This document shows positions 28,810 to 56,653 of a stretch of DNA of 64,000 nucleotides, piece after piece. Under the pieces are notes generated by a model, which searched no databases, was not told the DNA's origin, and saw only the letters and a list, made by a program, of their open reading frames with translations. The position numbers and the translations under genes were made by a program. How positions within the stretch are numbered: position 1 is the first letter of the stretch; each line of letters opens with the position of its first letter. This DNA is from Candidatus Latescibacterota bacterium (GTDB lineage Bacteria > Latescibacterota > UBA2968 > UBA8231), in NCBI GenBank assembly GCA_965261395.1, contig OZ253462.1:5216001-5280000 (forward strand), written 5' to 3'.

Positions 28810-29566
28810 TCGTAGTGACAAGATTTTTCAAAAAAGGAAGGCGAAAAGTAAAAAAACCTTAAAACGTAGTAGAGCCACCTTTTCCGAAAGGAGAAGGGTA
28901 ATGATCGTCTGCGAAGGCGAAAAAACTGAACCTCTTTATTTTAAGGCGTTGGTGGCTCGCCTAGGTCTTACAACTGCCGAGGTAGAAGTTTGTGGTGAAT
29001 GTGGCTCGGCACCGAAAAGCGTAGTAAGATTTGGTAAGAAAAAATTTGATTGTGACCCCGATTTTGATCTGATTTTTTTTGTTTTTGATAGAGATTCCCA
29101 CCCTGACTACGATGATGCTATAAGGCTAGTACAGCAATTCCAACTCCAGAGAAAACTTAAAGGAAAGACTGTTGCAGCGATTACTTCGAATCCTTGTTTT
29201 GAAGTTTGGTTTATGCTGCATTTTGAGGCATTCAGAAAACCTTGCGCAGTGGGTGGAGGGAAATCTCCATGCGGCAATTTAATTTCTTTGCTAAAAAGAA
29301 AGCCGGAGTTTGGAGATTACGAAAAGGGTCAGGGTAATCACTTTGAGATTCTATATAGTCGTCTGCCGAAAGCAAGACTAAATGCCGCTCTAACCTTGCA
29401 GCAGAGCCGAGAGATAGGAGATCGTGAACATCACGGAAACCCGACAACGTTTGTGCACTTACTGATTGATGAGCTAGAAGGTGTGGCAGCGACATACAAG
29501 AGATATGGGGAGATAACAGAAGAACAGAAGAAGGCCAAAACGGCTCACCCGCATGTGAAAGCCTGA
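28802..29566 (+). CDS. rloB: RloB family (TOPRIM-like, AbiLii-like) protein
   Basis: CEGEKTE, VFDRD, SNPCFEVW, NPTT; overlaps the ATPase stop. Confidence 0.85.
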   Translation: MPSRSDKIFQKRKAKSKKTLKRSRATFSERRRVMIVCEGEKTEPLYFKALVARLGLTTAEVEVCGECGSAPKSVVRFGKKKFDCDPDFDLIFFVFDRDSHPDYDDAIRLVQQFQLQRKLKGKTVAAITSNPCFEVWFMLHFEAFRKPCAVGGGKSPCGNLISLLKRKPEFGDYEKGQGNHFEILYSRLPKARLNAALTLQQSREIGDREHHGNPTTFVHLLIDELEGVAATYKRYGEITEEQKKAKTAHPHVKA

Positions 29567-29636
29567 GCTACAATACTGCGACAGAGTGCAGGGGTGCGTC
29601 ACGGTCGGAGGAGTTGCCCACGGCCATCCCTTCTGT

Positions 29637-30560
29637 TCAAGCCATTTCCCACCGCTCCCATCCCCGGTGCTCGTGCGTACCGCCGAAGTGTTGGGGATGG
29701 AAAATCTCGGCGAGAATTTCAGCCGATTCTACCAAGCGCGGCCCTGGACGGTTGAAAAACTGGTTGCCATCAGTAAAGAATACCTGCCCCTGCTGCACGG
29801 CTTGCAGCCGGGACCACAGCGGATGCTGGGTAAGCGCTGGCAATTCGCTTTGCGAACGGGGTATATCAAAACCGCAAGGCATCAAGACGATAATATCCGG
29901 CTGGGCCTTTTTGAGCATCTCCCAAGATAGCCAAGGGGAATGCGTCCCTGCCGCCGCGAAGAGGTTCTGACCACCGGCGATCTCCACCAATTCGGGAATC
30001 CAATTGCCCGCGGCCATCAGCGGCTCAAACCACTCGATGCAGGCAATGCGCGGACGATGGTCGATAGTACGAGTGCGAGCGGCGATTTGGTCCAGCCGAT
30101 CCCGTAATTGGGCCACCAAGGCGCGGCCCCGCTCCTCCACTTCTAGCGCCGCAGCCACCCGCTCAATATCACCCCAGACATCGGCTAACGCGTTAGGCTC
30201 CAACGACAGAATGGAGGGCCGGGAGCGCACCAATTGACAGGCGGCTTCTTCGACGTCTTTGAGACTGACGGCGCAAACCTCGCACTGCGATTGGGTCACC
30301 AACCAATCCGGGGCTAAGTCGTCGAGCAGGTCGGCGTCCACCCGGTACACCGAGGCAGCTTCCTGCAAGATAGCTTTGACCCGCTGATCAACCTGATATG
30401 AGGTCCCATCTGGGTCGAATTTGGGAGCCGTGCAAGCGGGTAGGTCGCCGACGCCGGGCGGATAGTCGCACTCGTGAGAGCGGCCGACCAAGTGCTCGCC
30501 GCAGCCGAGGGCGCAGATGATTTCAGTACTGCTAGGCAGGAGGGAAACGATGCGGCTCAT
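29637..30560 (-). CDS. Cobalamin/Fe-siderophore-type binding protein (BtuF-like, no signal peptide)
   Basis: RIVSLLPSSTE, GRSHECDYP, FNRPGPRL. Confidence 0.8.
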   Translation of the reverse strand: MSRIVSLLPSSTEIICALGCGEHLVGRSHECDYPPGVGDLPACTAPKFDPDGTSYQVDQRVKAILQEAASVYRVDADLLDDLAPDWLVTQSQCEVCAVSLKDVEEAACQLVRSRPSILSLEPNALADVWGDIERVAAALEVEERGRALVAQLRDRLDQIAARTRTIDHRPRIACIEWFEPLMAAGNWIPELVEIAGGQNLFAAAGTHSPWLSWEMLKKAQPDIIVLMPCGFDIPRSQSELPALTQHPLWSRLQAVQQGQVFFTDGNQFFNRPGPRLVESAEILAEIFHPQHFGGTHEHRGWERWEMA

Positions 30561-41261: not shown

Positions 41262-41936
41262 CTAGTCCCTCAGTAGGATGTTCTGCTCCTTCAGGCTCTG
41301 GATTAGTTGGCTAAATTTAGGCACCAATCGGATCACGATACGTCGGTTAGGGGACTGTTCATCCTTTGTTCCGGTTAGAACAACCAGCTCTCGCTCGCCT
41401 AAGCCAACCGGGACGATATCAAAATTTTCCCAAGTGAAGCCGACCTGCTCCCAATAGTCCACTATAGTTTGAGATCGTTTCAGGGATAGACTGCGGTTGT
41501 ATTCCTTCTCGCCGTAACTGTCGGTGTGACCCTCTACCACAATACTGAACAATTTACTGTCTTTTTTTTCTATAAACTGCTTTAATTTTTGACCTATTCG
41601 CCTGAGCCGATTTTGCCCTTCGACGGGAATATCATCCAGATCGGATTCATTAAAAGAGAACAAGATATCACTACGCATCACAATAGTACCCTCTTCCACG
41701 ACGACGTCTTCCCCCCCCATAAATTCCTCTAACTCATCGAGATCTTTCTCTATCTTACCCACCAACTCTTCTAGCGTCCGCAGACGGCTCAGATCCACAT
41801 AATTTTTGATCACCATCACGACGAGAAAAAAAGTGACGCAAATGAAAATAGCCGTGATTGCGTCCGTGAAAGAAGGCCAGAAATTGAGCCCACTATGGCT
41901 ACTGTGATTCCTTTTCATCCAGGGCTGCTTTCCCAA
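41262..41936 (-). CDS. MotB/OmpA-domain protein (ZorB-like)
   Basis: FWPSFTD + TM helix (conserved Asp), ILF, VEGHTD, NRSLSLKRS, NRRIVI peptidoglycan-binding motifs. Confidence 0.85.
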   Translation of the reverse strand: MGKQPWMKRNHSSHSGLNFWPSFTDAITAIFICVTFFLVVMVIKNYVDLSRLRTLEELVGKIEKDLDELEEFMGGEDVVVEEGTIVMRSDILFSFNESDLDDIPVEGQNRLRRIGQKLKQFIEKKDSKLFSIVVEGHTDSYGEKEYNRSLSLKRSQTIVDYWEQVGFTWENFDIVPVGLGERELVVLTGTKDEQSPNRRIVIRLVPKFSQLIQSLKEQNILLRD

Positions 41937-41957
41937 GCATTCAGCCGATGGGCCTGA

Positions 41958-43631
41958 CTATTCCTTGCTATTTTTCTTGAATAATCGACGAATCCAACCC
42001 CAATTTCTTCGCGGTCGTACGGTTACAACTTGCGGCGATTTCGCCATGCCGTCCAACTGTTTTTCTATAGCCTGCGCCGTCGCATGCATGTCTTCAAGCT
42101 GGGGGATTACCTGATCGATAGCTTTCAGTACTTGGAGATCCTCGTCCGTTTTTTTGAACCCTTGATTGATGGCTCCTACCATTTGATCTAGCTGGTTCTG
42201 CAACGCCCCTGTCGCTTTGCTCAATCCCTGTAGATCTTGGCGAAGCCCTTCCAAGCCATCTTGTACAGGTTGGTTAGCCCGTTCAAACGCTTCGCCTTGT
42301 TCCTTACCCAATCTTTGCAGATCTTGGCGAAGCCCTTCCAAGCCATCTTGTACAGGTTGGTTAGCCCGTTCAAACGCTTCGCCTTGTTCCTTGAGGCCAT
42401 TACTGACAGCACTGAGCAGGTTCTGGATATTCGTGAAATGGGGACGATAATCTGTGTCATTCAATCCTCTTATCGTCTCTAGAGTCTCCGCTAGGCCGTT
42501 TCCTAGAATCTCTATTCGCTCCTCAAATAACTTGGATTGTTTGTCTATCCGCTCATCAAAGGCTTGAAACTGTCGGGCCATCAGTCGCTCGCTCTCCTTG
42601 AGCATAGTATCGACGCTGTTCTTGAGCGCATTCAGAGGCCAGCTTAGCCGCTCAAAGTTCTCGATGTGTCGAGAAAACTCTATAGCCGCTCTCATTATTT
42701 TTTCCGCCCCCGCAGCTACCGTATCCTTGTGCTGCTCAAAAATCTCCGCGCTCTTCAGACTGGCCTCGCTACTTTCCTTGAGCTTCGTGCCGCTCTCTTC
42801 TATAAGTAAGACCATGCGGGCGTTACTATTGACAATCTCCTTGAGTCTTTTGTCTAAGTATTCGGAAAGAGCAGTGAAATACTTATCGTATAGGTCGTTT
42901 ACTGTTCGAGTAAAGGCGTGACTCAAGCGCAACTGAGGAGGGATTACAGCAAACTTGGGAGCGATCTTCGCGTTGAAGCACTCTTCCATGTTTGCCAATA
43001 ATGTGTTCCTACTGTGGAGTAGTGGGCTGTACAGAGCATTGAGGATTAAGGTGGAAAAAAGTCCTATTATACTGGTAATGAACGCCAGCGGCATCCCGCT
43101 TACGGACTGTCCTAATCCTTCTAGGATGGTACTAAATACATCCTCTATTTTTACCTCTTGGCTCAACGTCGGTGAAATCTGCGCTCCTTGGATAATACCT
43201 GGGATAGGTATGACCACGATTATTAAACCAACGAATGTGCCCAGTAGGCCCAATAGAATGAGGCTGCTGGTAAGTGAGCGGAATGCTTCGTCGTACCGGG
43301 CGAGTTCGTGTTCGATAGAGCCGATAAGACCGTCTACATCTGGAGCTTTATTTTGCCGGTATAAGGCCCTAAAATGTTCGAGCCAACGGACGGCTAGAGG
43401 ATGCTGAGCTTTCTTAAAAACTTCGGGAGATTGCTCAGTCTCTTCCTCCATATTGAAATTAGGATTGCTTTTCTCCCATCTCTCCATAGCATGCAATCCG
43501 CTGCGATATCGCCGCGTTTCTCTGCATCCTTGGACAAATAGGACAAGTGCAACTAGACCGACCAAGATAATGAGAACGATAAAAACGTCCCGAATCTGAT
43601 CGCTGTTTTGGGCTAAAAAGTCTAAACTCAT
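41958..43631 (-). CDS. MotA/ExbB-like membrane protein with long coiled-coil tail (ZorA-like)
   Basis: Three TM helices, LGLLGTFVGL and AFITSIIG motifs, then ~330 aa heptad-rich tail. Confidence 0.8.
   Translation of the reverse strand: MSLDFLAQNSDQIRDVFIVLIILVGLVALVLFVQGCRETRRYRSGLHAMERWEKSNPNFNMEEETEQSPEVFKKAQHPLAVRWLEHFRALYRQNKAPDVDGLIGSIEHELARYDEAFRSLTSSLILLGLLGTFVGLIIVVIPIPGIIQGAQISPTLSQEVKIEDVFSTILEGLGQSVSGMPLAFITSIIGLFSTLILNALYSPLLHSRNTLLANMEECFNAKIAPKFAVIPPQLRLSHAFTRTVNDLYDKYFTALSEYLDKRLKEIVNSNARMVLLIEESGTKLKESSEASLKSAEIFEQHKDTVAAGAEKIMRAAIEFSRHIENFERLSWPLNALKNSVDTMLKESERLMARQFQAFDERIDKQSKLFEERIEILGNGLAETLETIRGLNDTDYRPHFTNIQNLLSAVSNGLKEQGEAFERANQPVQDGLEGLRQDLQRLGKEQGEAFERANQPVQDGLEGLRQDLQGLSKATGALQNQLDQMVGAINQGFKKTDEDLQVLKAIDQVIPQLEDMHATAQAIEKQLDGMAKSPQVVTVRPRRNWGWIRRLFKKNSKE
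42232..42392 (-). repeat. In-frame tandem duplication (87-bp period) in the ZorA-like tail
   Basis: 74 nt identical at 42232-42305 and 42319-42392; KEQGEAFERANQPVQDGLEGLRQDLQ occurs twice. Confidence 0.95.
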
Positions 43632-43688
43632 GGGAGAGGATTTCTCTGCTGTAGTTACAATTCAGTCACAGGACAGGCACCCTTTTAC

Positions 43689-44639
43689 TCATTTCGCTAG
43701 CAAAATCCCGGACTTAACAATTACCTCAGTTCCCCGACGTAATCCAGGTGTAACAAATCGAATCACTTGACCGCGGCCTACCTGAGAATCTTCTCGCTCA
43801 TCGGAAATTTGGTGATCTTCTGGCGAGTATTTGTCCCCTTGCTCTGGCCAAATCAACTCAAAGTCGCGTTCTTGGGCAAATCTTTCCAATTTTGCGGGTT
43901 TCTGTTCTAGCGATTTTTCTTTGCCATCCAACTGTTTGATTAAACCGATCAGTGCAGAATCCCACGGACTGCTACAACTGTCTATCTTAGCTTGGATCGT
44001 CGTCCATTGATCTTTGAGAGCCGATCCCTCCGATATAAAAGAGACAAAATCCAATTTATTCACTGCCTCTTTGATCTTTTTGATGTCCTCGTCAATGGTC
44101 TCGGCATACTGTATCGACGGCATACTCTTTTCAGGTTCTAGTGGCAGTTCGTCGAGCATTTCTCGGAAACGATCTCGGGTATTTGTAATCTTTGAGTATT
44201 TTTTCATCCATTCTTCGGCAGCATCCCGTACTTCTTCTTGGAATGATCTTAGTCTCTTTTCCACATCAACCTCTAGCTTTTGCAGCTCTTGAAACTTGGT
44301 GTTGATAGGGATAGACTGGTAGAGATCTGCGTAATCGTCGTAGGAGGCTTGTATATTGTCGTGGAACTTTGTCAGCTTTTTTCTGAAGTTACTCAAATCG
44401 TTCAAAAACATGCCAACTTTCTTCACAAAGCTCTCTTCCGCTCCATCGAAGCCCTTGGCTACATCGAGGATATCCGAGAAGACGAGGCTGCCGAGATCGC
44501 CCTTGTGTAGTTTCTCGCGGATATGTCTTGTCTTATCGACCATTTCTCGCAGACCTTGGAGTTCTTTCTCCCAGCAGGCAACCTCGCTGCCTAGCGCGTC
44601 AACCTTTTCTTGAAATTCTGCCATTGATACCTTACCCAT
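43689..44639 (-). CDS. Coiled-coil protein with GrpE-like C-terminal head
   Basis: Long helical N-terminus; C-terminal I.P..GDKYSP..H...GQVIRFVTPGL..G..VIVKSG resembles GrpE. Confidence 0.6.
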   Translation of the reverse strand: MGKVSMAEFQEKVDALGSEVACWEKELQGLREMVDKTRHIREKLHKGDLGSLVFSDILDVAKGFDGAEESFVKKVGMFLNDLSNFRKKLTKFHDNIQASYDDYADLYQSIPINTKFQELQKLEVDVEKRLRSFQEEVRDAAEEWMKKYSKITNTRDRFREMLDELPLEPEKSMPSIQYAETIDEDIKKIKEAVNKLDFVSFISEGSALKDQWTTIQAKIDSCSSPWDSALIGLIKQLDGKEKSLEQKPAKLERFAQERDFELIWPEQGDKYSPEDHQISDEREDSQVGRGQVIRFVTPGLRRGTEVIVKSGILLAK

Positions 44640-44706
44640 TTAATGTTTTGCTGATCTTTACTTTTAGTGTCTTACCTGAATCTATCTCATAAATGCCATT
44701 GATACC

Positions 44707-44829
44707 GTAGGGACCGATTTATGAGATGCTTCGACTCGGCTGCGCGGAGTTTATCTTGAGCGAAGCCGAAAGGCTCAGCATGACAGGGGCTAGCTCGGTC
44801 CGTGCTTATCATGCTGAGCGTAGCGAAAC
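44707..44829. repeat. REP-like intergenic palindromic element
   Basis: GATGCTTCGACTC...GCTCAGCATGA...TCATGCTGAGCGTAGCGAA; 11-bp IR at 44773-44783 / 44809-44819. Confidence 0.65.
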
Positions 44830-44864
44830 TTCCTGTCAGGTGCATTGGCATTGCTACAAGGCAT

Positions 44865-47800
44865 TCAACTGTAGTTAAAGTTCTTGCATTCCAAGTATTC
44901 ACCATAGATTTCTTCAAAATCACTTCCATCCTTTTTCTGCCCTACCGCGAAATTGTAATAGAGCCGACCGAGATTGTTTTCATCGCCTCGAAGCTCGAGC
45001 TTGTACTGCCAATAAGCGATCTGCCGAAAAGCCCTGTCCTCTATGTCCTCTAGCGGTATGGGAATATCCGCTACTTTATGCCGATCTGCTCTCCGATTTT
45101 TGTAGTTCCAATCGAAGAATTCGTACAGTGAGATCTGAGAAAGTCGATCCTTAGAGAAAACCTTGCTCGTATAGGGATGTACCTCTCCCTTATTTAGGGA
45201 AATCCAACGATCGAAAATGGGCCTGAAGCCTCGCATTGGATTGTAGGAACCTATCGGATAATTTAGCTTGTGTATCCCGAAGACTTGAAATCTGAACTCT
45301 GGATCGCGTTGAGACATGCCGTAAATAGCCGCTCCCGAAGCTACGCTCGCCTTCAAGTCATTATTGGAGCCTGCCTCTGAAAGAGCAGGGTCAGAAAACT
45401 TTTTAGCCTGTATCTCCTCTGAGGCGACTTCTTGCACAATCGGCAACTTGGACGAATTGCCGGCCAAGATCAGATGATCCAGCCGCATTTCTGATATAAT
45501 CCCCCGATCATAAAGTTCCTTCTGCATCATAGCTAGTTTTTTGAAACCCTGTTTCAATTCTCGGCTGAACACCGAGCGAATAGCCTCGTACTTCATAGGG
45601 CTAAGTTCCTCCGGCAAGGCTTCGTCCTTGTCCTTGATGCTGCGCTTTAATCCCTCCGTGACTTGAAATACATCGCCCCCATCCGGGCTGACCAATTCAA
45701 TTTTGGGCCACTTTAGTTCCTCGTCACTGGCTAGCAGGTCCAGCAATCCCTTATCTCTTGTCTTTTGTAGTTCCTCGTAGCGTTTTTGGGAAAAACATTC
45801 GTCGAACAACTCATAGCTCTTGCTGTTTGTCTTGATCCTCTCAGCTAACTGATAGAGGTGCAGAAAGTTCCTTTTCACACTGGTATCTTGGGTGCGTAAG
45901 CCATCTCGCAGATCTTTTGCAAAGGGATAGCGACTGCGGTACTGTTCCGGGACGAGTTCCTCGTAGAAGTATTTAGCCAAGTGAAATGTCAGCAGGTTCC
46001 CTCCCAGCAGATTGTCGCCATCGGAACCGAGAATTTTCACTTGCACTTCATTATCATCGCTAGTGTAACGTACGATAGACATATCGGTCGTTCCCCCACC
46101 GCAGTCGAATACCCCAATGATCTGTTCATCTCCCGGATTATCCTCCCCGAGCTTCCACACATAATACACCGCAATAGCTTCAGGTTCACTAATAGCTAGA
46201 TCTCGGTCGAACTTAATGTCGTGATCCTGCAAAGCCTGTTCGACCGCGTTCTGCAGAGCCTGTTTTTGGCGATTGAATATCGCCGGATAAGTTAGTACGA
46301 CCTCGCTAGGTGAATACCCGGATTCTCCGATGAAGTGCTCTACCATAAACCGGAGATAAATAGCTACTTGGTCCACCGGAGTCAGGCTGATATGCCGCCT
46401 ATTTATAGAGGGATGTCCATTGATCAAGATACCTTCCGACATCCCGGTAGAAATATAGAAATTCTGATCGTCGGGTTGGCTGAGAGCGTATTTGAAACTC
46501 CAGCAGATACTGCTCATAAAGTTCCAGAACTCATTGACGTCATTATTGTTATTGAGCGAAAGGTCATTCATCTGCCGAAATGGCTGACGACCAAAGCGCA
46601 TGATGGCTTCCTCGTTCTCGGTTGCAACCAAGTGATGCTCATTCGGCTCCAGAGAGTGGGTCAGTTCCAAACGTTCCGTTTTATTATTTATTGCCAGAAG
46701 CTGAAAGACAGTCGGTATTTCGACGCGAGGTTCATCGCTCTCGAGGTCTGCCAAGTGAGGCATCTCTCCATCTTCAACATAATAAGCCAAGCAGGAATTG
46801 GTTGTCCCAAAATCGATGCCAATGGGATAATCTAACGGTTTGGGAGGAATAACCTCGACAGGGAGCGAAAACCTCTCTTCGAACGCCGGATCTTCCGCTT
46901 CTATATCCTCAGCCTCTCCCTTGACTATGATCTCGGGTTCAAAATGCTTTGATTCTGTTGTCTGCGGGATATCGATAGTCTTCACTTGCAACTGCAACTG
47001 GAGATTCAGCACACTCTCCTCATCAGCACCCGCCGCTGCACTCTGAGAGTCAAGGAGGGCCTTCCTTGGGGGGTCAACGACCTGTAGCCAAGGCGTATCG
47101 CTGGTCACGCTATTTATGCGTAGTGGTGCGCCCCGTAAGTGCGTAATGGTGGCACTCACCTCTTTCGGTCTTCGACTTCCGCTGATAAGTGCCGTATCAC
47201 CGGATAAACTCAGCGGATTGAAGTCCAGCTTGAGCACCGGCTGACGAGTGTACTTTAGATTGAGACGAAATTCGACGTCACCTATGTTCTGGATGGGAAA
47301 AACGAGATGTACAGGATGTCCTTCTTCAGACAGATCTTGATGTCGGGTGAGCTCTACCGAAAAGGCTTTGTATGGGGCCAAGCGGAAGGGATAGTTTACC
47401 TCGTTTTCCAGCACCGCCACTTGCTCTTCCTGGGACAGACGGGGACACTTTCCCAAGACCACTTCGCTTGTAGCGTGCAGGGCCAGATTGTGCCTCCAGG
47501 CTTTCTCATTCACCGGCCACAACTGTGCGCCGTCAGTGCCTTGGTCAAACTCCCGCCCCTGCTCGTCAGCCAGCCAGATTCGGGGAGCCTTTTGGACCCG
47601 ATAATGAAATGAAATCGGTGACACCGTGGAGTGCAGGATCAACCGCTCCCGTTGGCCGTGAGACTCGGCATGCAGCCGACGTATTTCTATTGCTTCCCCT
47701 AGATCCAAGGAGACGGGCCAATTCGCTTCCGAAACCCATGCTCCCCATTCTACTCCATCGAGACGTTCCAGTTTCACGGGTATTTTCCCGGTATTCTCGA

Positions 47801-47996
47801 ACCGCATGATGACTGGAAAGCCTTCGAAAAGCGTCAACGACTCAACGGGCTTGGGAGATACCTCTAGACGGGCGAGTTGAGTCCCGCAACTGCTGCAAAA
47901 GATGATTCGGCTTCCACAAGGCCACTGACAAACAGGACAAGCACCCATCGCCTTATCGACCCGCTCTTGACTCGCTTCCCTAGGCATTGGCACCAT
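44865..47996 (-). CDS. Atypical Hsp70/actin-fold ATPase with N-terminal Zn ribbon and Ig-like region
   Basis: CPVC...FCSSCG; GIDFGTTNS, LTYPA.F, SEPEAIA, FDCGGGTTD, LGGN, LAGNSSKLP, VASGAA; 1043 aa. Confidence 0.85.
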   Translation of the reverse strand: MVPMPREASQERVDKAMGACPVCQWPCGSRIIFCSSCGTQLARLEVSPKPVESLTLFEGFPVIMRFENTGKIPVKLERLDGVEWGAWVSEANWPVSLDLGEAIEIRRLHAESHGQRERLILHSTVSPISFHYRVQKAPRIWLADEQGREFDQGTDGAQLWPVNEKAWRHNLALHATSEVVLGKCPRLSQEEQVAVLENEVNYPFRLAPYKAFSVELTRHQDLSEEGHPVHLVFPIQNIGDVEFRLNLKYTRQPVLKLDFNPLSLSGDTALISGSRRPKEVSATITHLRGAPLRINSVTSDTPWLQVVDPPRKALLDSQSAAAGADEESVLNLQLQLQVKTIDIPQTTESKHFEPEIIVKGEAEDIEAEDPAFEERFSLPVEVIPPKPLDYPIGIDFGTTNSCLAYYVEDGEMPHLADLESDEPRVEIPTVFQLLAINNKTERLELTHSLEPNEHHLVATENEEAIMRFGRQPFRQMNDLSLNNNNDVNEFWNFMSSICWSFKYALSQPDDQNFYISTGMSEGILINGHPSINRRHISLTPVDQVAIYLRFMVEHFIGESGYSPSEVVLTYPAIFNRQKQALQNAVEQALQDHDIKFDRDLAISEPEAIAVYYVWKLGEDNPGDEQIIGVFDCGGGTTDMSIVRYTSDDNEVQVKILGSDGDNLLGGNLLTFHLAKYFYEELVPEQYRSRYPFAKDLRDGLRTQDTSVKRNFLHLYQLAERIKTNSKSYELFDECFSQKRYEELQKTRDKGLLDLLASDEELKWPKIELVSPDGGDVFQVTEGLKRSIKDKDEALPEELSPMKYEAIRSVFSRELKQGFKKLAMMQKELYDRGIISEMRLDHLILAGNSSKLPIVQEVASEEIQAKKFSDPALSEAGSNNDLKASVASGAAIYGMSQRDPEFRFQVFGIHKLNYPIGSYNPMRGFRPIFDRWISLNKGEVHPYTSKVFSKDRLSQISLYEFFDWNYKNRRADRHKVADIPIPLEDIEDRAFRQIAYWQYKLELRGDENNLGRLYYNFAVGQKKDGSDFEEIYGEYLECKNFNYS

Positions 47997-50030
47997 CCAT
48001 CACATATATATCGTCTTTGCAGTGAGGATCGCTATAGTCTAGGGGTTTGGCAAAACCATCTTTGTTCTGCAAGTGTTTGCCGATACGGTCGTCCAATTCG
48101 CTGTCGCTAATGCCCAAGCGCTGCTGCACATCCTTGAAATTCTCTTTGAAAGCCTTGATAAGCAAACTGTGGAACAAGTCATCCACATTCACACTCTGGC
48201 CGTCTATTACAACTCTTCTTTTGGGATATACCTCACTCACTAGATGGCTTTGGAGGGCCAAGTACTGCTCAAAAACGAGGCCATTGCCATCCGATTTCCA
48301 GTTATCCCAAATCTTTTGCACCGCTTGGCGCAGCCTATTTCGTTTCTCCCGGTCTCGGGCCAAACTCCGGCGTGCCACCTCGATATTGGGTCCGTAATCG
48401 TCCGTGTGCTTTAGGCCCTGTTCTTGGTAAGTTCGGTAGAATCCCCGTCTGTCAAAAGTCACTACCTCGAGTAAGATACCATCAATGAGCGGCTGTAGGG
48501 CATCCACTAGCATCCGCGCTTCTTGGTCGTCCCTAGGCGGTAGTATCTCCGGATATTTGATATAGTCTTTGGTCATGTACCGACGGAATACATTCTGCGG
48601 CACTCTAAGGTTGTTTTCGTATGCTCTGTGCAGCTTCCTCAAATTGTCGATAGCGAACAGAGGAAAGGCCATCCATTGACTGACAAATATCACCGAATCG
48701 GGGGCGTGATACTCCGCTTTGTATCCTCCCACGTTTTGGTCGACTAGCTCCTCCCACCTTTTTTCATTTGGGGGAAGTCCTATGGTTTTCCGAGTGTGGT
48801 TCGACATACCCTGCGGGGCAGGTTTCAACTCGGACATCCGCGCTTCGGCTAGCCGTGCTCGTTTCTGCATCTCCTCTTTCTCGTTATGTTTCTGATTTTG
48901 CAACTCTTGAACGGCGTTTCTATCGGCATAGAACTCCTTAAATAGGTCAAACGCGAACCGACTCAGTGAATCCTCTACCTCTTCCCAATCACGAGGGGCA
49001 TTGTTCTTATTCGCCGAGCGATTGAAAATAATGCGGGTACAATCTCGTATGGCATCGATCTCTGTCCCTTCGAGATTAGCGTACTCAGCAAACAGCGGCT
49101 TGGCTTCTTCCGAGCGGAAATACCTCCTCAAAATATCTTGCAAAATTTCCTTGAAACCGGCACCTGTCAGTCCTCTTTTTTCGAGCTCCTTCCTTATTGC
49201 CTCCTCATAGTTAAGTTCGGGCATGAGACTGAGGTTGCGTACACTAGGCATCCGCTTTCTATAAGAATTATGGAACCCCTCAAATCGGCTAGCCAGATCT
49301 TGGAGATGTTTTTGAAATTCCTCTACCTTGGCCAGCAAACCGCTGAATTCCACATGGAGTTCACCATCTGCACCCCGGACTTCGGTCTGTTGGCCGACAA
49401 AGCCGATCATATTGTCAAGCAAGCCCTTTTCCTGCACCCGTCCCCCGGAATTGGGATTGAGCAGACGCCCAGCCGCTTCCTTCTCATAGCGAGTGGTGAC
49501 CCATTCCTTGAGTTGCTTCTCGACAGCCTTCACCTGCTGCACCAGATTACGGGTGATAAGCTCGGCGTTCTGCTTAAGGGATTGCTTTTTGCGTCCTTTG
49601 TAATGGTTGATAGCAATGCGTTTAGTTGAGAAGGCAAAGGGCATCTCCTCCCTAGCCGCTTTTAGGCGAGCCTCGTATTTCTCGTAATCTTCGGTAAATT
49701 CGATTTCGAGCGGCGGTGCCTCTAGTGCTTCTATGTCCTGATTCTCCCTAGCCTGCAATTCCTCTTTGATGCGCTCCAGTTCGCGGACGGCGATCTTCAG
49801 CCACTCAACCATAAACTTGGGGCCGAAATTCAAGGGGTCGCACAATAATTCAAGACACTCATCCTCTACCCGCTTTTCGAGCTTGGGACGATCCAAGCCG
49901 ATATTTTCCAGGATCTGCGTCACACCATCGCCCTTTTTGGTGCCTTGCTGTAACAGTCTTTCCCCTACTCGTTCCTTCACCTCGCGGACTAATCTACCCA
50001 TATCCTGCCGCGTTTTTTCCACTAGGTGAT
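47980..50030 (-). pseudogene. C-terminal part of the tubulin-like protein, separated by the IS
   Basis: Rejoins ...QKDLDHL|VEKTRQDM in frame after removing the IS and one TSD; largely helical. Confidence 0.85.
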
Positions 50031-51215
50031 GGCTTTGGTGCATGAATTGGTGTTTTTTTCGGTTGATCGGTTGAATAAAAACAGGCTCCTCAGTAGATTG
50101 AGCACGACTTTCGCCAAAAAACCCATGCTTTCTCGTCCAAGGAACCTGTCATGGCCAACCTATCGTCTTGCCCCTCTTCCGTCAAGCCTGGTCGCTCGCC
50201 TCGCCGTCGCTCCAACGTCGTGTACCGGGTACGTAATTGGGCCGACTATGAGGCCGGGCTGCAACAGCGCGGTAGTCTGACGGTGTGGTTCACGCCCCAG
50301 GCCGTCGAAGCTTGGTATTATCAAGGGCCGCCTCAGCGGGGGGCGCAATATACCTTTTCGGAGGTCGCCATCCAAACGGCGTTGACGCTGCGTCTTTTGT
50401 ATCACTTGCCCCTACGCCAAACCGAGGGGTTTGTCGCTTCGGTGTTGGCCCTGATGGGCTTGGATCTGCGGGTGCCCGATCACACGACCCTGTCGCGCCG
50501 TCAGGCGGGTTTAGCCGTGGCGTGGCCGCCCCAGCGGGGAGACCAACCGATGCACTTGGTGGTGGATTCGACCGGGCTGAAAGTGTATGGCGAAGGCGAA
50601 TGGAAGGTGCGTCAGCACGGCTGGAGCAAGCGGCGCACGTGGCGCAAATTGCACCTCGGGGTTAATGAAGCCACCGGCGAGATCGTCGCGCAGACCTTGA
50701 CGACGAATAGCCACGATGATGCGGGGCAGGTGGAGCCGTTGCTGGCACAGATCGAGGCCCCCGTGGAGGCGTTGGGCGGCGATGGGGCCTATGACAAACG
50801 CAAGGTGTTCAAGGCGTTGGCCGCGCCCGAGCAGGGGGCACCTATTCATCCGATCATTCCGCCGCGCAAGGACGCCAAAATCGAGCAACATGGCAACACC
50901 AACGCCGAGCCGTTGCCCCGCGATGAGACGATTCGAGCCATCCGCAAACGGGGCCGTCGAGGTTGGAAACACGAGAGCGGCTATCATCGACGCTCGGTAG
51001 CCGAAACGCAGATAGGCCGCTACAAACAGATACTTGGTGACACCTTGCGCACCCGAACCCTAACCAACCAACAGACCGAAGCGCGGTTGGGCTGTGCCTT
51101 GCTCAACCGGATGCGGGCGTTGGCGAAACCTGAGTCCTATCCGCTAACCAAAAAAGCGTAAATCACACGCGAAAGAAGCCAACACGGCCCCGACCGGTTT
51201 TCATGCAACAAAGCC
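50031..51215 (+). mobile_element. IS5 family (IS903 group) element, copy 2, 1185 bp
   Basis: Same IRs and transposase as 10574-11758; 9-bp TSD CTAGGTGAT at 50022-50030 and 51216-51224. Confidence 0.95.
50151..51161 (+). CDS. IS5 family DDE transposase
   Basis: Protein identical to 10694..11704. Confidence 0.95.
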   Translation: MANLSSCPSSVKPGRSPRRRSNVVYRVRNWADYEAGLQQRGSLTVWFTPQAVEAWYYQGPPQRGAQYTFSEVAIQTALTLRLLYHLPLRQTEGFVASVLALMGLDLRVPDHTTLSRRQAGLAVAWPPQRGDQPMHLVVDSTGLKVYGEGEWKVRQHGWSKRRTWRKLHLGVNEATGEIVAQTLTTNSHDDAGQVEPLLAQIEAPVEALGGDGAYDKRKVFKALAAPEQGAPIHPIIPPRKDAKIEQHGNTNAEPLPRDETIRAIRKRGRRGWKHESGYHRRSVAETQIGRYKQILGDTLRTRTLTNQQTEARLGCALLNRMRALAKPESYPLTKKA

Positions 51216-52626
51216 CTAGGTGATCCAAATCCTTTTGATCCTCTACCGCCGATGCCGTGTGCAACTCGTTCTGCAACTCATTGAAAGCCGGTTCGATCAA
51301 CTCGTTGACGACCTCATCAATCAAGGTGAAATCCTTTCCCGGCTTGGCCAAGCAGCGTTGCAAAAAGAGTTTCTCAGTTAGGCCCATCCCCTCTAAGCGG
51401 GGTTTGACATCGGCATCATCATAGCCCTGAGGGATTCTGTTGTCCTTGGCCATGATAAGTTCTACCAGATACTGAGCGCAACGGTTAGCAGCCGCATTGG
51501 CCAGACGAGGCTGATTCAATTCAATCTGGGAGAGCCCGAAAGATGCATATCGGCATGGAAAATACTGGACATAGCTTCCGTTGTGGTAGCCTGTCACATC
51601 CTGTAGGTACTGCTCCATATTGGAACGTACGCTGCGCTTTTGAGCGGCAAATCTAGTCCGGTCGAAATCCAGCAGCAGAAACTCAGCAATCATCTGGAAC
51701 GTATCGGTAAATTCGGTGATGCGTTCGCCAGCCACATTCTCGTTGTCGAGCATATAGACCGTATCAAAAGGCGGTGCTGGCACCGGCCGAGGGCTACCAC
51801 CACCCCAATTAAATTCGTGGGTGGAGTATTCGCTTGTCTCCTTATCCTCGTCGGCGACAAACCGGGGCTGCATGAAGTATTCGAGTTCCTTGAGGGCGGC
51901 AAAGCCATTGGCATGGACGGCTTCTGTCCCGGCGGATCCCACTACATCGTCGAAAACCGTGGGCATGGCAAGAAAAGCCGTGCGCGTAGAAGTTGGGAAC
52001 AAAACTCGACACAGAAATCCGACATCGATAAAGCAGCCAGACCCCGTTCCACCGCCGAGAGACGATATAATAATGATATCGAAGGCCCTAGTATCTACCG
52101 TATAATCTGGGTAATCGCGGTTCATGTCCGCGAAGGCCTCTTGGGCAGTTACTTTTCTCCCCAATCTTTCGATGGCGTCGTGAATTTCCGTGTAATGGTG
52201 GAAGAAAGCCAATCGCCCGAAGGAACGGATCTGCCCAGCACCTTGCATGATGGCATTAGCAGGCAGCGCGTCCAGTTCGCTGGGAAACCAGTCCCATATA
52301 TGCGGATAGGCATTCTTGTTGAGCCGGTATCCAGCCAACTCCTCGGGCTGGACCCGTCCATCAATTTTCTGTGGAGCGGTAAGGTCAATGCGCTTGTCCA
52401 ACTCGTCGGGCACCTCTCCGCTCAGGGACTGATTGCGGATATCAGTATCAAACCATAGGTACTCCATGATGGGTAAACCCGCTACTCTGTACTTCTCGTA
52501 GAACATCCGTCGCAGCCGCCGCAGTACTTCCTTTCCCGTACCTCCCAAGCCGATCAAAAGCGTGGGACGGATATCGATCGTTTGGCTTCCTTCTTTTGCT
52601 GTACCTATAGTAGTTATCTCAACCAT
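51163..52626 (-). pseudogene. Tubulin/FtsZ-like GTPase (Tubulin_2/FtsZl-type), N-terminal part
   Basis: IGLGGTGKE, FDTD, GAGQIR..GRLAF, signature SLGGGTGSG, AN.FAALKEL; ATG 52626 with AAGGAG RBS. Confidence 0.88.
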
Positions 52627-52728
52627 GGTGTTCTCCTTCAATGTTGATCCAACTCAGTCATTAGATGCTTTTCAGGTCGAAGCCCCCGACGGCTGTCGTA
52701 CGAGGGCATTGGGACTCACTCGGAATTC

Positions 52729-53760
52729 TCAGCGGCGGCTTGGCCGGGTGACAAGTTTTGCTATCACCACAATGCAGAGGATCACCATCCCAAAGATGAG
52801 GATTCGCCATTCAATTTGCGAACTTGACTCCCAGCCCATCAAAAAATCAAAAAATCCGCTCAACCCCAAAGAGGCGATCAGCGCAATGCCTCCCCACAAC
52901 ACGAGGGCGGACCAACCAAAAGCTGTGGCCGGGTGCATGTCTCGGGTCTTGATGAGTCCGCTAAAAAGTAAGACCGAAAGGATATAGACGATTACAGAAA
53001 GTACCAAAATCCAGACTATGCGCCCAACCTCCACATAGCGAAAGGTGCCCTTCGATCTAGTCTCCGGCGGAGGTACCCCTACCTCGACAGGTTCATATTG
53101 GTCCGAGGAGATGCCCAGCAGCGGTTTAGCTTCATCAATTGAGACCGCAAAGTTGAGATTCTGCCCCTCGTCGTGGCTAGAGCTTAGATTAAAACTTACC
53201 ACGCCAATTACCTCTCCGTTCTGGTCGAATAAAGGCCCGCCGCTATTGCCCGGCGATACGGCGGCATCCGTCTGAATCAGTCTGAGGCCCTCCGGGGTAG
53301 TGCGAACCTCGGAGATAATCCCTTCGGTGACCGAGTATTCTAGCCCCAAGGGGTTGCCTATTGCCACCACGGGATCGCCCGAGCTCATATATTCTCCTGA
53401 CCCAAGCCTAGACGGCTGTAGGTGTTGGCCGCGCGGATCGACGTTTATCACCGCCAGGTCTTTGAGTTCGTCTTGGGCGACAACGCCCGTAATCGGCATC
53501 CAAGTTCCTTTGAAAGGCTTGGCCCATCCTTCTTTGATGCCCTTGATTACATGGTGCGCCGTGAGAATTTGGCCCGTTGACTTGATGATGATTCCGCTCC
53601 CCAGCCCTTCTCCCTCATTGGTAGAGACCTTGAGGAATACTACGCTTCCCTTCTCTTCCTTGGCAATCCGCTGAGTAAACGTGGAGCCGCTTTGTCCCGA
53701 CCCGCCACACCCCATCCAGCCGATAGCCAGTATGAATCCGAGCGTGATGTGCCGTTTCAT
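52729..53760 (-). CDS. Trypsin-like (S1/HtrA-type, no PDZ) serine protease with C-terminal TM helices
   Basis: Triad TAHHV / DLAVI / GNSGGP; N-terminal signal with possible lipobox Cys; three hydrophobic C-terminal segments. Confidence 0.88.
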   Translation of the reverse strand: MKRHITLGFILAIGWMGCGGSGQSGSTFTQRIAKEEKGSVVFLKVSTNEGEGLGSGIIIKSTGQILTAHHVIKGIKEGWAKPFKGTWMPITGVVAQDELKDLAVINVDPRGQHLQPSRLGSGEYMSSGDPVVAIGNPLGLEYSVTEGIISEVRTTPEGLRLIQTDAAVSPGNSGGPLFDQNGEVIGVVSFNLSSSHDEGQNLNFAVSIDEAKPLLGISSDQYEPVEVGVPPPETRSKGTFRYVEVGRIVWILVLSVIVYILSVLLFSGLIKTRDMHPATAFGWSALVLWGGIALIASLGLSGFFDFLMGWESSSQIEWRILIFGMVILCIVVIAKLVTRPSRR

Positions 53761-53775
53761 CTTGACTCCCTAGTG

Positions 53776-55404
53776 TTATTTGAGGCGTTCCAGTTCAAAT
53801 TCATTGCCCTTGTGTTTGAAAACCCATTTTTCATCCTTTTCAAAAGCCATCCCCTCCTCACCGACTGGATCGTCCATCCGATTTCTTAGTTCGGCCCTTT
53901 CGTCGCCCTCTTCGGCCGGCAGTAAGCGGTATTTGCATTTGAACAGGCCGTCTCGCCGCAAATATCCCAAAACGATATCCTTTCCGCTTTGGTTTGTGTA
54001 CTCCAATTCCTTTTGACCGCCGGGGCGCATCCAGTACTTGTACTCGACGTCTGCCAGCCGATAAACGAGCCTCCTGAAATAAACCATTCCCCCGGCAGCT
54101 ACCACAGCGATGGGTAGCAAGATCACCACGACCCAAGCCCGCCACAGATAGAGAGGGGAACGGACTTGCAACCTGCCTCTTATGGCTCCTCCCTTGGGCA
54201 CCACTTCCAAACCCTCTCGGTCTCGGTGCAGGAAGTGTATCAGATCGTCTGGCGTATAGATACGCTCGACCTCTTGGGGGTTGTCGGTAAAGTACTTCTC
54301 CTGATAAAGAGGAGTCATGCGAAACGAGCCAGGCGGTATTTCCAAGACAACCTTGGACATATATTGCATCGGAATCGGGCTGGTACGCGCCATGTCAAGC
54401 TGGTCGAAGAAGCCAACCTCGTTGGGCTGGAACGGGCCTAGGCGGATCCGGCACGAATAGCGGTATTTGTTCTGGGTATTGTGCTCCAGTTTCTCTTCAA
54501 GGCGGGGTGGAGTAACTCGTCCTCTCCCACTGGCTCGAATCCAGTACCGCCGGTCTTCGGGCTGCATGGGAACGATCCTAGGCTGACTCACCTTCAACCG
54601 CACCGGATTACCATGCTCATCTGTCGGCTCGATATTCAGGTAGCTCAATTGCGACTCTAGAGTAAAGGAGAAATCGACCGACTCGGATTCGTCCATGCCG
54701 ATATCACTTAGCTGGTCCGAAGGTGTCCTGCGTTTGCGATGTAGAACAATGCGGTGGTCTAGCGGTTTCATCAGCATCGGTTCCAAGCCGCCAGCCTTGA
54801 GTTGGGAGATGAGTTTGCCGAATCTAGCGCGCTGATCTTCTTCTGTGAGATAGGCATACAGGACCACCCCACGCGGACCTTGGTGGTACGCCTTGTCCGG
54901 GTGATTGAACAACCGCCCGTCAAAGGGCAGACTCAGCGGCACGGCATATAGTACTTGTACCACATCCTCCGCAAAACGCGCATAGAGCCCCCGAACATCC
55001 TCGTCATTGGTGGTCGCCTGCACATTATCGGTTAAGAAAAAAGTAATCGGCGCCCATCCAAGCCCTTCTTCAAAAGCCCTGAGCAAATTAGTATAGCTGC
55101 CCCAGCGTGCGTCTTGGGTCTCCTCGATCCACACTAGCGAATCCGGGTGTTGGGATACAAAAAATAAAGTGCCCGCCTCCAGTTGCTGGTCTTGGCAGGC
55201 TTTTTCCAACGAGGTCAGCAATTTCTGTAGCTCACCTGTCTGCTGGAAGCCCTCCATTGAACCAGAGCCATCGACCAATATGCTGACATCCATCCCAGCG
55301 GCGGCACGAGGGCCGCCAAGCCCTAGGCAGCACAGCAGAGCAGCGTACCAGAATGACCGGCTTTCAAACGGCCAATAGGTCATAGCGATACAGATGGTAC
55401 TCAT
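53776..55404 (-). CDS. Single-pass membrane vWA-like protein
   Basis: Signal peptide; MIDAS-like VDGSGSM...T...LTD; TM (WVVVILLPIAVVAAGGMVYF) then ~95 aa cytoplasmic domain. Confidence 0.65.
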   Translation of the reverse strand: MSTICIAMTYWPFESRSFWYAALLCCLGLGGPRAAAGMDVSILVDGSGSMEGFQQTGELQKLLTSLEKACQDQQLEAGTLFFVSQHPDSLVWIEETQDARWGSYTNLLRAFEEGLGWAPITFFLTDNVQATTNDEDVRGLYARFAEDVVQVLYAVPLSLPFDGRLFNHPDKAYHQGPRGVVLYAYLTEEDQRARFGKLISQLKAGGLEPMLMKPLDHRIVLHRKRRTPSDQLSDIGMDESESVDFSFTLESQLSYLNIEPTDEHGNPVRLKVSQPRIVPMQPEDRRYWIRASGRGRVTPPRLEEKLEHNTQNKYRYSCRIRLGPFQPNEVGFFDQLDMARTSPIPMQYMSKVVLEIPPGSFRMTPLYQEKYFTDNPQEVERIYTPDDLIHFLHRDREGLEVVPKGGAIRGRLQVRSPLYLWRAWVVVILLPIAVVAAGGMVYFRRLVYRLADVEYKYWMRPGGQKELEYTNQSGKDIVLGYLRRDGLFKCKYRLLPAEEGDERAELRNRMDDPVGEEGMAFEKDEKWVFKHKGNEFELERLK

Positions 55405-56653
55405 GATCGCGGGTCATCACGTACACGTATTTGCCGAAACCCGCTGGCGGCACAACCGGATCTTCGCCTAAAGGCCAGCCGCGCAAGAAAGGTTCCCCTC
55501 CTCGTTCATCAAGACGGGAAAGACGAAATTCCGTATTAGCTCCCACTCCTCTTTGGAAGTTGGCGACCAAGCCGCCCAAGCCTTTGGTCTGATCAATGTG
55601 CCTCATGGAATATCCGAGACTACACTCCAATTTGGACGTAACTTGCCGATTCAATGGATCGAACAATAGCATAAAATTAGACCCTATCGCCATATAGCAA
55701 TAGCCGGACTCGATCCGCAGTGCCTGTAGGGCCTGTACCTCTACCTCGGTTCGGCTCGGAATTTCTTTTAGCACCTGTTGGCCGACTAACTGTAGGGCAC
55801 ACAAGCCCCCTTCTTGAGTCAATAGCCATATTGACGGATCCTCGCCGCGCATCACGCCCGCCGAAGCGGCTAATGGACCGCCGCGGGCATCCTCATCCTC
55901 ATACGAGATTTTCTTGCCCTGTTCCAAATCCAAGAAAACAACCCTGTTTTCCTCTTCTATTAAGCCCAGATAGGTCTCGCTTCCCCGAATTGGGATCATT
56001 TCTTGGATAGGCAACGAATTTTTGTCTAGCTCTTGCTTTTGCAATTCGTCGAAAATGCGGTTTTCGCTCTTCCAGTATCGATCGCAACTTGCTTTATCTA
56101 CCTTATATACATGAATAGTCAACGCCTCTTGGTCCAGCAGGAAAAGCCGATTCCGGCCTAAGGCAATCTTCTCGACGCGCTCACATTCCACGGCAAGCGG
56201 CTTCCATGAAGCAGCTTTCAGCATATCGTCGTTCAACAACGAAGAGGTCGGAAACACCTGCAGCGTCCCCACCTCCGTGAGCGCGTAAATCCACCAGCGG
56301 TCAAAATCCACCTGACGCAAGGAAGTCGAATCCCCTTTGAGTGGAGGCAGGTCGTGTGGCTCGTTCTCTATGTAGGTACTCATTTCTCCGCTGGATTTAT
56401 CCACTAATAAAGGCTGGCCGAATACGTTAAAGAGGTCGTCGACTTGGTCCATAATGACCGGCAGATTCCTGACAGCACTGTCTTTACTCTCTCCGGAAGG
56501 TATGTCGGCCATGTAATCGACAGGTTTGCTCTCGACAGCACCGCCGCAAACGGCGCAAAAATTAGCGAGCGCATGATGCTCGCGGCCATCTTTAGAACAC
56601 GTCCAAGCGTTCTTATGCCAATTCCAGTCTTGCATCATTTCTCGCATCCTCAC
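55364..56653 (-). CDS. Hypothetical protein, Zn ribbon + possible beta-propeller
   Basis: WTC...NFCAVCG; repeated short beta-strand patterns (WIYALT..G.L, IWLLT..G.L, YVYVMT). Confidence 0.55.
   Translation of the reverse strand: MRMREMMQDWNWHKNAWTCSKDGREHHALANFCAVCGGAVESKPVDYMADIPSGESKDSAVRNLPVIMDQVDDLFNVFGQPLLVDKSSGEMSTYIENEPHDLPPLKGDSTSLRQVDFDRWWIYALTEVGTLQVFPTSSLLNDDMLKAASWKPLAVECERVEKIALGRNRLFLLDQEALTIHVYKVDKASCDRYWKSENRIFDELQKQELDKNSLPIQEMIPIRGSETYLGLIEEENRVVFLDLEQGKKISYEDEDARGGPLAASAGVMRGEDPSIWLLTQEGGLCALQLVGQQVLKEIPSRTEVEVQALQALRIESGYCYMAIGSNFMLLFDPLNRQVTSKLECSLGYSMRHIDQTKGLGGLVANFQRGVGANTEFRLSRLDERGGEPFLRGWPLGEDPVVPPAGFGKYVYVMTRDHEYHLYRYDLLAV

Follow-up and report, generated by a model that had tools for sequence, protein, structure and literature searches.

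What does a gene block do in which an ion-driven motor of the Zorya type stands in one operon with a tubulin-like GTPase, an Hsp70-like ATPase and a periplasm-facing protease, and do its genes act together at all? We address this question for eight genes, g1 to g8, on the minus strand of a Candidatus Latescibacterota genome, at positions 41262-56653 of a 64,000-nucleotide stretch of contig OZ253462.1 (the whole of which we call the window). Zorya is among the commonest bacterial defence systems, and its motor is thought to relay an envelope signal to soluble DNA-targeting effectors. We read the block as one functional, horizontally acquired and envelope-spanning eight-gene system with a predicted role in conflict and with a cytoskeletal rather than a nuclease output, and we put the probability of this reading at roughly 0.45. 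The block is best described as a Zorya-type motor and a periplasmic protease joined to a core of vWA, tubulin, Hsp70 and GrpE-like genes that is known from predicted conflict or membrane systems.

A conserved gene set at a variable chromosomal site

An earlier note on this DNA had described eight co-oriented genes, overlapping or closely spaced, in a block more AT-rich than its flanks, and both observations held: the listing of open reading frames (ORFs) with translations places g1 to g8 on the minus strand with overlaps of 41 and 17 nucleotides (nt) and gaps of 15, 87, 225, 57 and 21 nt, and GC content along the window is 0.45-0.55 within the block versus 0.59-0.65 outside it (0.50 for the block minus an insertion sequence, IS, that splits g4, versus 0.62 for the flanks). 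The note had set co-occurrence of the genes in other genomes as the test of its proposal, and we found the g1-g8 order to be identical in 14 of 14 other Latescibacterota loci, that is, 13 loci from the 15 other g5-positive genomes plus L001, with G118 and G075 left out as fragmented contigs. Seven loci are close (63-99% identity per gene) and six are distant (25-58%); in the distant loci g6 is too diverged for tblastn, and an ORF of 266-313 amino acids (aa) at its place aligns C-terminally. The dN/dS ratio is 0.07-0.60 over all eight genes in seven pairs and is lowest for g8 (0.07-0.14). Since the order is the same in all loci and dN/dS is below 1, the gene set is conserved and selected, and the eight genes are one conserved unit under purifying selection. 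Order conservation and dN/dS also rule out the reading of the block as a chance neighbourhood of unrelated genes or as decayed, functionless DNA, to which we give next to no credence: one gene is indeed broken by an IS here, but the order is kept down to about 30% identity, dN/dS stays below 1 in every gene, and an intact, IS-less allele occurs in other public runs.

The block occurs as an insertion/deletion polymorphism at a single site of the chromosome. Of 168 genomes of the phylum, 16 have the g5 gene, as do eight of the 31 in the window's own genus (G000 counted), and in all six loci fetched from this genus (seven with the window) the block is bordered by the same pair of genes. In four of the five complete genomes of the genus without the block, the site is empty and the two border genes are adjacent; in the fifth it is filled by a 1927-aa Ig-like protein with He_PIG and FlgD_ig domains (L117:2165-7948), which makes the site a hotspot for variable cargo in general. 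The block has been acquired horizontally: its GC content is 0.46-0.50 versus 0.58-0.69 in the flanks across its own clade, L103 and L110, and in the lower-GC genus of the distant clade it is close to that of the flanks. Other low-GC patches of the window, at 1-4000, 10001-14000 and 26001-30000 (0.46-0.53 versus about 0.62), may be further acquired segments.

Foreign GC content and insertion/deletion polymorphism would also be expected if the block were cargo of a mobile element, for instance a tubulin-based DNA segregation module such as TubZ that serves the element and not the host, and in two loci of the distant clade a tyrosine recombinase gene lies directly after, or overlaps the end of, the ZorB-like gene g8 (L109:15484-16383 and L111:1954-2841). 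Yet the island consists of the eight genes only, with no replication, partition-adaptor, transfer or integrase genes in the window copy, whose borders yielded neither an integrase nor a repeat; no relatives were found on viral contigs, and a DNA segregation module has no use for membrane and periplasmic components, all of which makes cargo of this kind highly improbable. The block is flanked on one side by genes for a glycogen-debranching enzyme and an acetyl-CoA synthetase and on the other by a small ORF, a TonB-dependent receptor gene and cobalamin-uptake genes.

Its alleles also recombine. Between the window and L107, identity is 96-99% for g1-g4, g7 and g8 versus 72% for g5 and 70% for g6, and dS is 0.42 for g5 and 0.28 for g6 versus 0.03-0.06 in the remaining genes; a recombination tract has exchanged g5 and g6 together. 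At least four of 15 copies are damaged (the IS in g4 here, a split g7 in L103 and a truncated g8 in both L110 and L112), some of which could be assembly errors. The frequency of inactivation implies that the system is dispensable.

In the window genome the system has been inactivated by a recent insertion in the tubulin-like gene g4. The inserted element (50031-51215, plus strand, 1185 bp, transposase at 50151-51161) has all the marks of the IS5 family, namely a DDE transposase (NCBIfam transpos_IS5_2, E 2.5e-93), terminal inverted repeats of 16 nt, a 9-bp target duplication (ATCACCTAG at 50022-50030 and 51216-51224) and multiple copies, and when it is removed together with one copy of ATCACCTAG the two halves of g4 are in frame, as read by eye. 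The insertion is recent because the genome holds 20 identical full-length copies, two of them in the window (10574-11758 and 50031-51215), which points to a recent burst of transposition; a further seven genomic copies are 81% identical to the element. Contigs from DNA run X6 and from RNA library X17 join position 50021 directly to 51216 (with 9 ambiguous bases), and an uninterrupted g4 allele therefore exists in nature. Two RNA libraries from one study gave contigs over parts of g1-g6 from a variant of 90-99% identity, including an IS-less one that bridges g3 and g4, and are compatible with expression of the operon, DNA carry-over being possible; parts of g7 and g1 are left uncovered by these contigs, which is no evidence of absence.

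The motor pair and its partners

The last two genes of the operon, which the earlier note had described as a MotA-like gene with a long tail and a MotB/OmpA gene, show the anatomy of a Zorya-type ion-driven motor. The first of them, g7 (41958-43631, minus strand), encodes a ZorA-like motor subunit of 557 aa with three transmembrane (TM) helices and a helical tail of about 330 aa, and it is matched by the PADLOC profiles ZorA1 (E 4.6e-10) and ZorA3 (E 2.4e-6), with ZorA profiles reaching down to 2.7e-3. In the AF2 model, residues 10-230 have a pLDDT of about 80-90 and residues 232-530 are predicted to be helical at low confidence. When residues 1-241 of this model were used in a fold search, the top 24 rows were all ExbB, TolQ or ZorA (Z 11.1-13.3), and Foldseek ranked 5sv0 and 8qyd_A first, so that the predicted fold places g7 in the ExbB/TolQ/ZorA group; by fold alone, ZorA and ExbB/TolQ are not told apart. 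A search for g7 homologues returned its own clade only, with 26 proteins of at least 71% identity and two weak matches. The tail carries a 29-residue repeat (residues 415-472) in two copies here and in one to three in close relatives, and this variation in copy number shows that tail length is evolving by repeat gain and loss; the tails of the distant clade have a different, longer repeat unit that is also variable in copy number.

Its partner g8 (41262-41936, minus strand, 224 aa) is ZorB/MotB-like, with an N-terminal TM helix that contains Asp25 and with an OmpA-type peptidoglycan-binding domain (Pfam OmpA, E 1.1e-12). PADLOC ZorB1 matches it at E 5.6e-21 over residues 8-218 (profile positions 7-228 of 232), and EcZorB chain 8qyd_F at E 4.8e-6 over residues 7-159. 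The WPSFTD motif of the TM helix is kept in 12 of 14 rows, the other two being a truncated copy and a wrongly picked ORF, and a YNxxLxxxR motif has the spacing of the four residues of the ZorB peptidoglycan-binding mutant, a match on spacing and not on residue-wise alignment. In L108, L109, L111 and L113, which belong to the distant clade, the ZorB-like protein is longer (304-376 aa) and has a second OmpA-like segment, and that of L113 also bears a repeat rich in Gly, Thr, Lys and Glu.

The likeness to Zorya thus lies in the three TM helices, ExbB/TolQ/ZorA fold and long helical cytoplasmic tail of g7, as in ZorA, and in the membrane Asp and OmpA-type peptidoglycan-binding domain of g8, as in ZorB. 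In the account of Hu et al. 2024 (PMC11946911), ZorAB is a 5:2 peptidoglycan-binding ion motor, and the long ZorA tail, which is long in all Zorya subtypes, is needed for defence; the g7 tail of about 330 aa compares with residues 223-729 of the E. coli ZorA tail deletion construct given there. Unlike in Zorya, the motor genes stand last in an eight-gene operon, the scores of g7 and g8 are far under the curated ZorA and ZorB cut-offs, none of the ten ORF products of the locus has a PADLOC match to ZorC, ZorD, ZorE, ZorF or ZorG, no nuclease is present, and the partners are tubulin-like GTPase, Hsp70-like ATPase, GrpE-like, vWA-like, protease and zinc-knuckle proteins.

The tubulin-like partner g4 is split by the IS into a 5' part (51216-52641, minus strand), which holds the FtsZl1/Tubulin_2 GTPase domain, and a 3' part (47980-50030, minus strand), which encodes an uncharacterised C-terminal region of about 680 aa. 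The earlier claim of a tubulin-like GTPase of about 1150 aa is borne out by a Tubulin_2 match at E 9.1e-66 over profile positions 1-355 of 356 and by intact orthologues of 1138-1158 aa. Tubulin_2 is present in 13 of 13 orthologues (Pfam), GGGTGSG is invariant in the family, and g4 is the only Tubulin_2 copy in this genome. Its C-terminal region has no Pfam match, no Pfam family besides Tubulin_2 and Tubulin being common to the 13 members, and the g4 profile found no solved relative among PDB sequences. By these signatures g4 is an FtsZl1 tubulin-family GTPase with an intact GTP-binding signature.

Next in the operon, g5 (44865-47996, minus strand, 1043 aa) combines a zinc ribbon (CxxC...CxxC, residues 20-37), some 350 uncharacterised residues and a nucleotide-binding domain of the Hsp70 type that contains insertions, in agreement with the 1043-aa Hsp70-like ATPase noted earlier. 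The domain is matched by Pfam HSP70 (E 8.6e-14), and the best PDB chain for the g5 profile is DnaK (1dkg_D, E 1.1e-17), with which g5 is collinear over DnaK residues 5-23 and 136-242 and, under the threshold, also over 329-354. All three motifs of the actin-fold nucleotide-binding domain (phosphate-1, phosphate-2 and adenosine) are present, and DFGTTNS, EPEA, FDCGGGTTD and GN are invariant in 20 sequences. Its best NCBIfam DnaK/HscA score is 57 bits versus a cut-off of 648, and at the level of sequence no substrate-binding domain was matched in Pfam, NCBIfam or PDB searches. We therefore take g5 to be a predicted Hsp70-type ATPase domain without a recognisable substrate-binding domain, which sets it apart from DnaK, as does the 380-aa N-terminal extension with its zinc ribbon, which has no Pfam match.

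The adjoining g6 (43689-44639, minus strand) encodes a predicted helical protein of 316 aa with a GrpE-like C-terminal segment. The earlier call of a GrpE-like protein has weak support in this C-terminus, the last 50 residues of which are in register with GrpE of the phylum (hhalign, E 0.0016, probability 16%), and in the positional counterpart in a distant locus (L140:7392-8921), which scores 26.7 bits against Pfam GrpE, over the cut-off of 25.8; g6 itself scores 21.5 bits. Among PDB sequences the g6 profile found nothing beyond coiled-coil or zinc-ribbon noise, as did the g1, g2 and g7 profiles, and the AF2 model has a pLDDT of 52 and leaves the C-terminus unresolved. Complex prediction for g6 with the nucleotide-binding region of g5 gave 0.28 versus a mark of 0.32, which speaks neither for nor against binding. 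As in a DnaK-GrpE pair, the nucleotide-binding motifs of g5 are kept and the next gene has a GrpE-like C-terminus; unlike in such a pair, the cluster has no DnaJ and the canonical GrpE gene, the only one found by a Pfam GrpE scan of the whole genome, is located elsewhere. We regard g6 as a weakly supported candidate for the exchange-factor partner of g5, together with which it was exchanged in the recombination tract. In G129, G140 and G141, genomes of the same genus, extra divergent GrpE-family genes occur outside the cluster (E 1e-12 to 1e-17, frames of 227-375 aa).

The g5-g6 intergenic region contains, at 44716-44819, a perfect 11-nt inverted repeat (GCTCAGCATGA / TCATGCTGAGC), beside which a stretch of some 70 nt (about 44720-44790) is very deep and has many loose ends in the RNA-library contigs. 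The intergenic stretch has only three 26-nt partial copies elsewhere in the genome and no Rfam match, and about 44720-44790 looks like a short repeat common to other contexts or organisms. Across the locus, an Rfam search gave zero matches and a scan for promoters and terminators gave a signal no higher than in shuffles.

Three further proteins complete the block. The product of g1 (55364-56653, minus strand) is a cytoplasmic protein of 429 aa, with no TM segment predicted, whose N-terminal Cys/His zinc-knuckle (C19, C33 and C36 invariant in 14 sequences) upholds the zinc-ribbon half of its earlier description; its uncharacterised beta-rich body had been called a propeller, which is left unconfirmed, the one lead being a weak Atlas score of 0.78 to PQQ/NHL propellers. 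No Pfam, NCBIfam or PADLOC match was found for g1, and its profile touched PDB chains in zinc-ribbon parts only (E 0.08-0.13). The second protein, g2 (53776-55404, minus strand, 542 aa), is bitopic: it starts with a signal or TM segment, crosses the membrane again in a TM helix (residues 425-443) and ends in a cytoplasmic tail about 100 aa long. The TM helix of the earlier "TM vWA" protein is thus present, and its vWA nature is indicated by an invariant MIDAS-type motif (D45-S47-S49, T105, D126), by an hhalign match to vWA domains of the same genome (E 1.6e-4, probability 51%, 46 columns in the T...TD part) and by named Atlas neighbours of similar length, some of whose members carry VWA_2/VWA_3 (score 0.83); Pfam vWA models match none of 14 family members, and g2 has no other Pfam match. 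A divergent periplasmic vWA protein is a moderately supported assignment for it.

The third, g3 (52729-53760, minus strand, 343 aa), had been called a TM trypsin-type protease, and this was confirmed: it matches Pfam Trypsin_2 (E 3.9e-29) and NCBIfam degP_htrA_DO (E 4.8e-41, under the curated cut-off), has a lipoprotein-type N-terminus, and ends in three TM helices. The triad H70, D101 and S173 is invariant in 14 sequences. Unlike in HtrA/DegP, the TM segments (248-338) occupy the PDZ position, no PDZ domain was matched by Pfam, and every HtrA-type equivalog is far under its cut-off, so that g3 is a predicted periplasm-facing HtrA-like protease with its catalytic triad intact.

By TM prediction, five of the eight proteins are membrane-embedded or periplasm-facing. 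A trans-envelope device for adhesion, motility or export could be built from such parts, by analogy with the myxobacterial gliding machinery, which according to PMC9946355 unites a TolQR-type motor, a cytoskeletal element and a vWA adhesin, and the cluster does have a motor, cytoskeleton-family nucleoside triphosphatases and a vWA-like protein. The vWA-like domain of g2 is, however, predicted to be anchored in the inner and not the outer membrane, no outer-membrane or secretin component was found in the cluster by Pfam or NCBIfam, the wall-binding domain of g8 would act as a stator, unlike a moving motor, and the block is missing from most close relatives, which together make a gliding-like device very unlikely.

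Relatives without a motor and systems already described

The g5 protein has a small family of full-length relatives, in 53 clusters at 32-95% identity, and 64 cluster representatives of the family score E <= 1e-30; among the 150 matches listed, well over a hundred are long proteins of similar length. Scanning metagenomes with the tubulin-like alignment yielded 18 loci at 25-46% identity. The longer ones have a vWA-like gene, in places a small multi-TM or protease gene, a tubulin-like gene (1072-1249 aa) and an Hsp70-like gene (968-1177 aa), a core that is often preceded by a zinc-ribbon protein, with a TM/coiled-coil protein at the far end. The ZorA and ZorB models had no match among the ORFs of these loci besides an unrelated OmpA protein 8 kb off on the other strand, Walker A motifs were absent apart from one doubtful match, and the g7 profile (hhalign) did not match the downstream ORFs available for L139 and L140. 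Since these relatives keep the core without the motor, the core is the older and wider unit, and the protease domain and the motor pair were added in Latescibacterota. In L139, three 324-aa ORFs (16744-17718, 19467-20441 and 21346-22320) on the opposite strand are interleaved with the cluster after g5; they have no Pfam or PADLOC match and are probably copies of an unclassified mobile element.

Parts of this core are already in print. Makarova & Koonin 2010 (PMC2875224) defined FtsZl1 and, in the text available, predicted a membrane-remodelling system in which it occurs with vWA proteins, a P-loop GTPase, kinases and OmpA-family proteins. Our block resembles these operons in its Tubulin_2 protein, in the adjoining membrane protein g2, a probable counterpart of their membrane-associated vWA protein with its intact MIDAS motif, in its OmpA-family protein and in having many uncharacterised membrane partners, and it differs in that their frequent P-loop GTPase and kinases are absent. 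The words Hsp70, DnaK, MotA and protease each have zero occurrences in the main text of that paper, whose supplementary families A1-A2 and B1-B9 may include some of the partner genes found here.

Kaur, Burroughs, Iyer & Aravind 2020 (PMC7159879) described DO-GTPase/GAP1-N2 conflict systems with tubulin+vWA or Hsp70+GrpE sets, which the retrieved text presents as non-overlapping, and proposed tubulin and Hsp70 as effectors that assemble into multimers. Their tubulin theme, with tubulin fused to a C-terminal helical domain and vWA proteins with TM helices, is like ours, as is their Hsp70 theme, which includes Hsp70 without the peptide-binding domain, plus GrpE; zinc ribbons are frequent in these systems and action near the membrane is predicted for them. 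Unlike there, as far as that text goes, both themes lie in one operon here, the one or two TRAFAC-clade P-loop GTPases (DO-GTPases) are missing, and the operon also has a ZorAB-like motor and an HtrA-like protease; the terms "MotA", "ExbB" and "TolQ" are absent from the same text. In our locus the Walker A motif is absent from all nine ORF products, and none matches a P-loop family in Pfam, NCBIfam or PADLOC. As for the GAP1 protein of those systems (GAP1-N, -M and -C domains), g1, g2, the g4 C-terminus and the g5 N-terminus drew no Pfam match, which bears on GAP1 on the assumption that Pfam includes models for it.

Our literature searches gave no publication in which a ZorAB-like motor is linked to homologues of tubulin or Hsp70, and the scan against described systems gave no PADLOC system model, and no NCBIfam one, that covers the locus. 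The earlier note knew of no described system that combines all of these parts, and the searches agree; the novelty is not complete, since FtsZl1+vWA+OmpA operons (2010) and the tubulin+vWA and Hsp70+GrpE modules (2020) were known; going by the text of these sources, what is new here is their union with a ZorAB-like motor.

Conflict or envelope remodelling

A working model for the block can be drawn by analogy with Zorya. Upon an envelope disturbance, such as that caused by a phage, the peptidoglycan-binding domain of g8 would engage the wall and ion flow would turn g7 with its tail, as proposed for the Zorya motor. In parallel or upstream, the periplasmic vWA-like g2 and the protease g3 would sense or process an envelope signal, to be relayed through the TM helix and cytoplasmic tail of g2. 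In the cytoplasm the output would come not from a nuclease but from the tubulin-like GTPase, which would assemble in a nucleotide-dependent way where the motor sits, while the Hsp70-like ATPase, with its GrpE-like exchange partner, would control or remodel this assembly; the end result may be a local block or an abortive response. In its most specific form, the proposal is a Zorya-like immunity in which a wall-anchored rotary motor with a long tail triggers or organises a tubulin filament together with an ATPase of the Hsp70 type and the exchange factor of this ATPase, all governed by a periplasmic vWA/protease sensor, so that defence would have a cytoskeletal or mechanical output. The motor would have been grafted onto an older core of vWA, tubulin, Hsp70 and GrpE genes, where it stands in for the P-loop GTPase switch of related conflict systems; we hold this version tentatively, as rather unlikely in its entirety.

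Several observations weigh against a conflict system built on a Zorya-type motor. The motor is an addition to the system rather than its centre, as the distant relatives with a vWA-tubulin-Hsp70 core and no ZorAB-like genes attest. Seen on its own, the predicted g7 fold matches ExbB/TolQ (Z <=13.3) at least as well as ZorA (Z <=11.8), and for this reason a Tol/Ton-like energising role is possible; NCBIfam antiphage_ZorA_2 gives g7 16.7 bits versus a cut-off of 100, and anti-phage_ZorB1 gives g8 34.7 bits versus a cut-off of 400. The vWA and GrpE assignments of g2 and g6 are weak, and no nuclease or other classical effector was found among the block genes. A diversifying recognition module in g5 had been considered and was dropped, as sliding identity shows divergence to be even along its length, with no hypervariable domain. 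Nor does the context support immunity: the association with defence islands that the earlier note had proposed to check for failed to appear, with a PADLOC match, to a generic HEAT repeat, in one of 34 flanking ORFs drawn from the window, L103, L108-L113 and L117; the window flanks are metabolic and transport genes, the sole mobile or toxin neighbours by Pfam are the tyrosine recombinase (two loci), PemK (one) and a transposase-type helix-turn-helix protein (one), and relatives on viral contigs amount to 0 of 47 pattern matches.

The main alternative is a non-immune machine for envelope or membrane remodelling, in which a tubulin-like filament and the Hsp70-like ATPase would shape or repair the inner membrane (vesicles, invaginations or damage), the ion motor would supply energy or wall anchorage, and the vWA/protease pair would handle envelope substrates. 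Such a role is what PMC2875224, in the text available, proposes for FtsZl1+vWA+OmpA operons, and it accords with the membrane or periplasmic exposure of five of the eight proteins, with the resemblance of the g7 motor domain to ExbB/TolQ, which energise envelope maintenance, at least as good as that to ZorA, with flanks that hold no defence genes, and with a motor-less core that is widespread in metagenomes. Against such a role, the block is patchy even within the genus, with presence and absence at one site, has a GC content foreign to the host and has had alleles replaced by recombination; its frequent inactivation fits an accessory conflict system better than a housekeeping one, although an accessory stress-repair module would look alike. 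Remodelling is in our judgement doubtful, if clearly ahead of a gliding device or mobile cargo. We favour a conflict role, anti-phage or anti-invader, and rank it above a non-immune membrane-remodelling role because the block is patchy, recombining, often broken and of foreign GC content, and because the only known role of ZorAB is defence.

Direct tests of the conflict reading are feasible because the family is small and conserved and because intact and broken alleles exist in nature. If true, the coupling of such a motor to a tubulin-like GTPase and to an Hsp70/GrpE-like pair would mark the Zorya motor as a sensor module that can be carried from one system to another. It would further offer a first way into the function of the FtsZl1 tubulins, which were predicted in 2010 and among which g4 has a profile without a solved chain, and on the roles of tubulin and Hsp70 homologues in predicted nucleoside triphosphate-dependent conflict systems.

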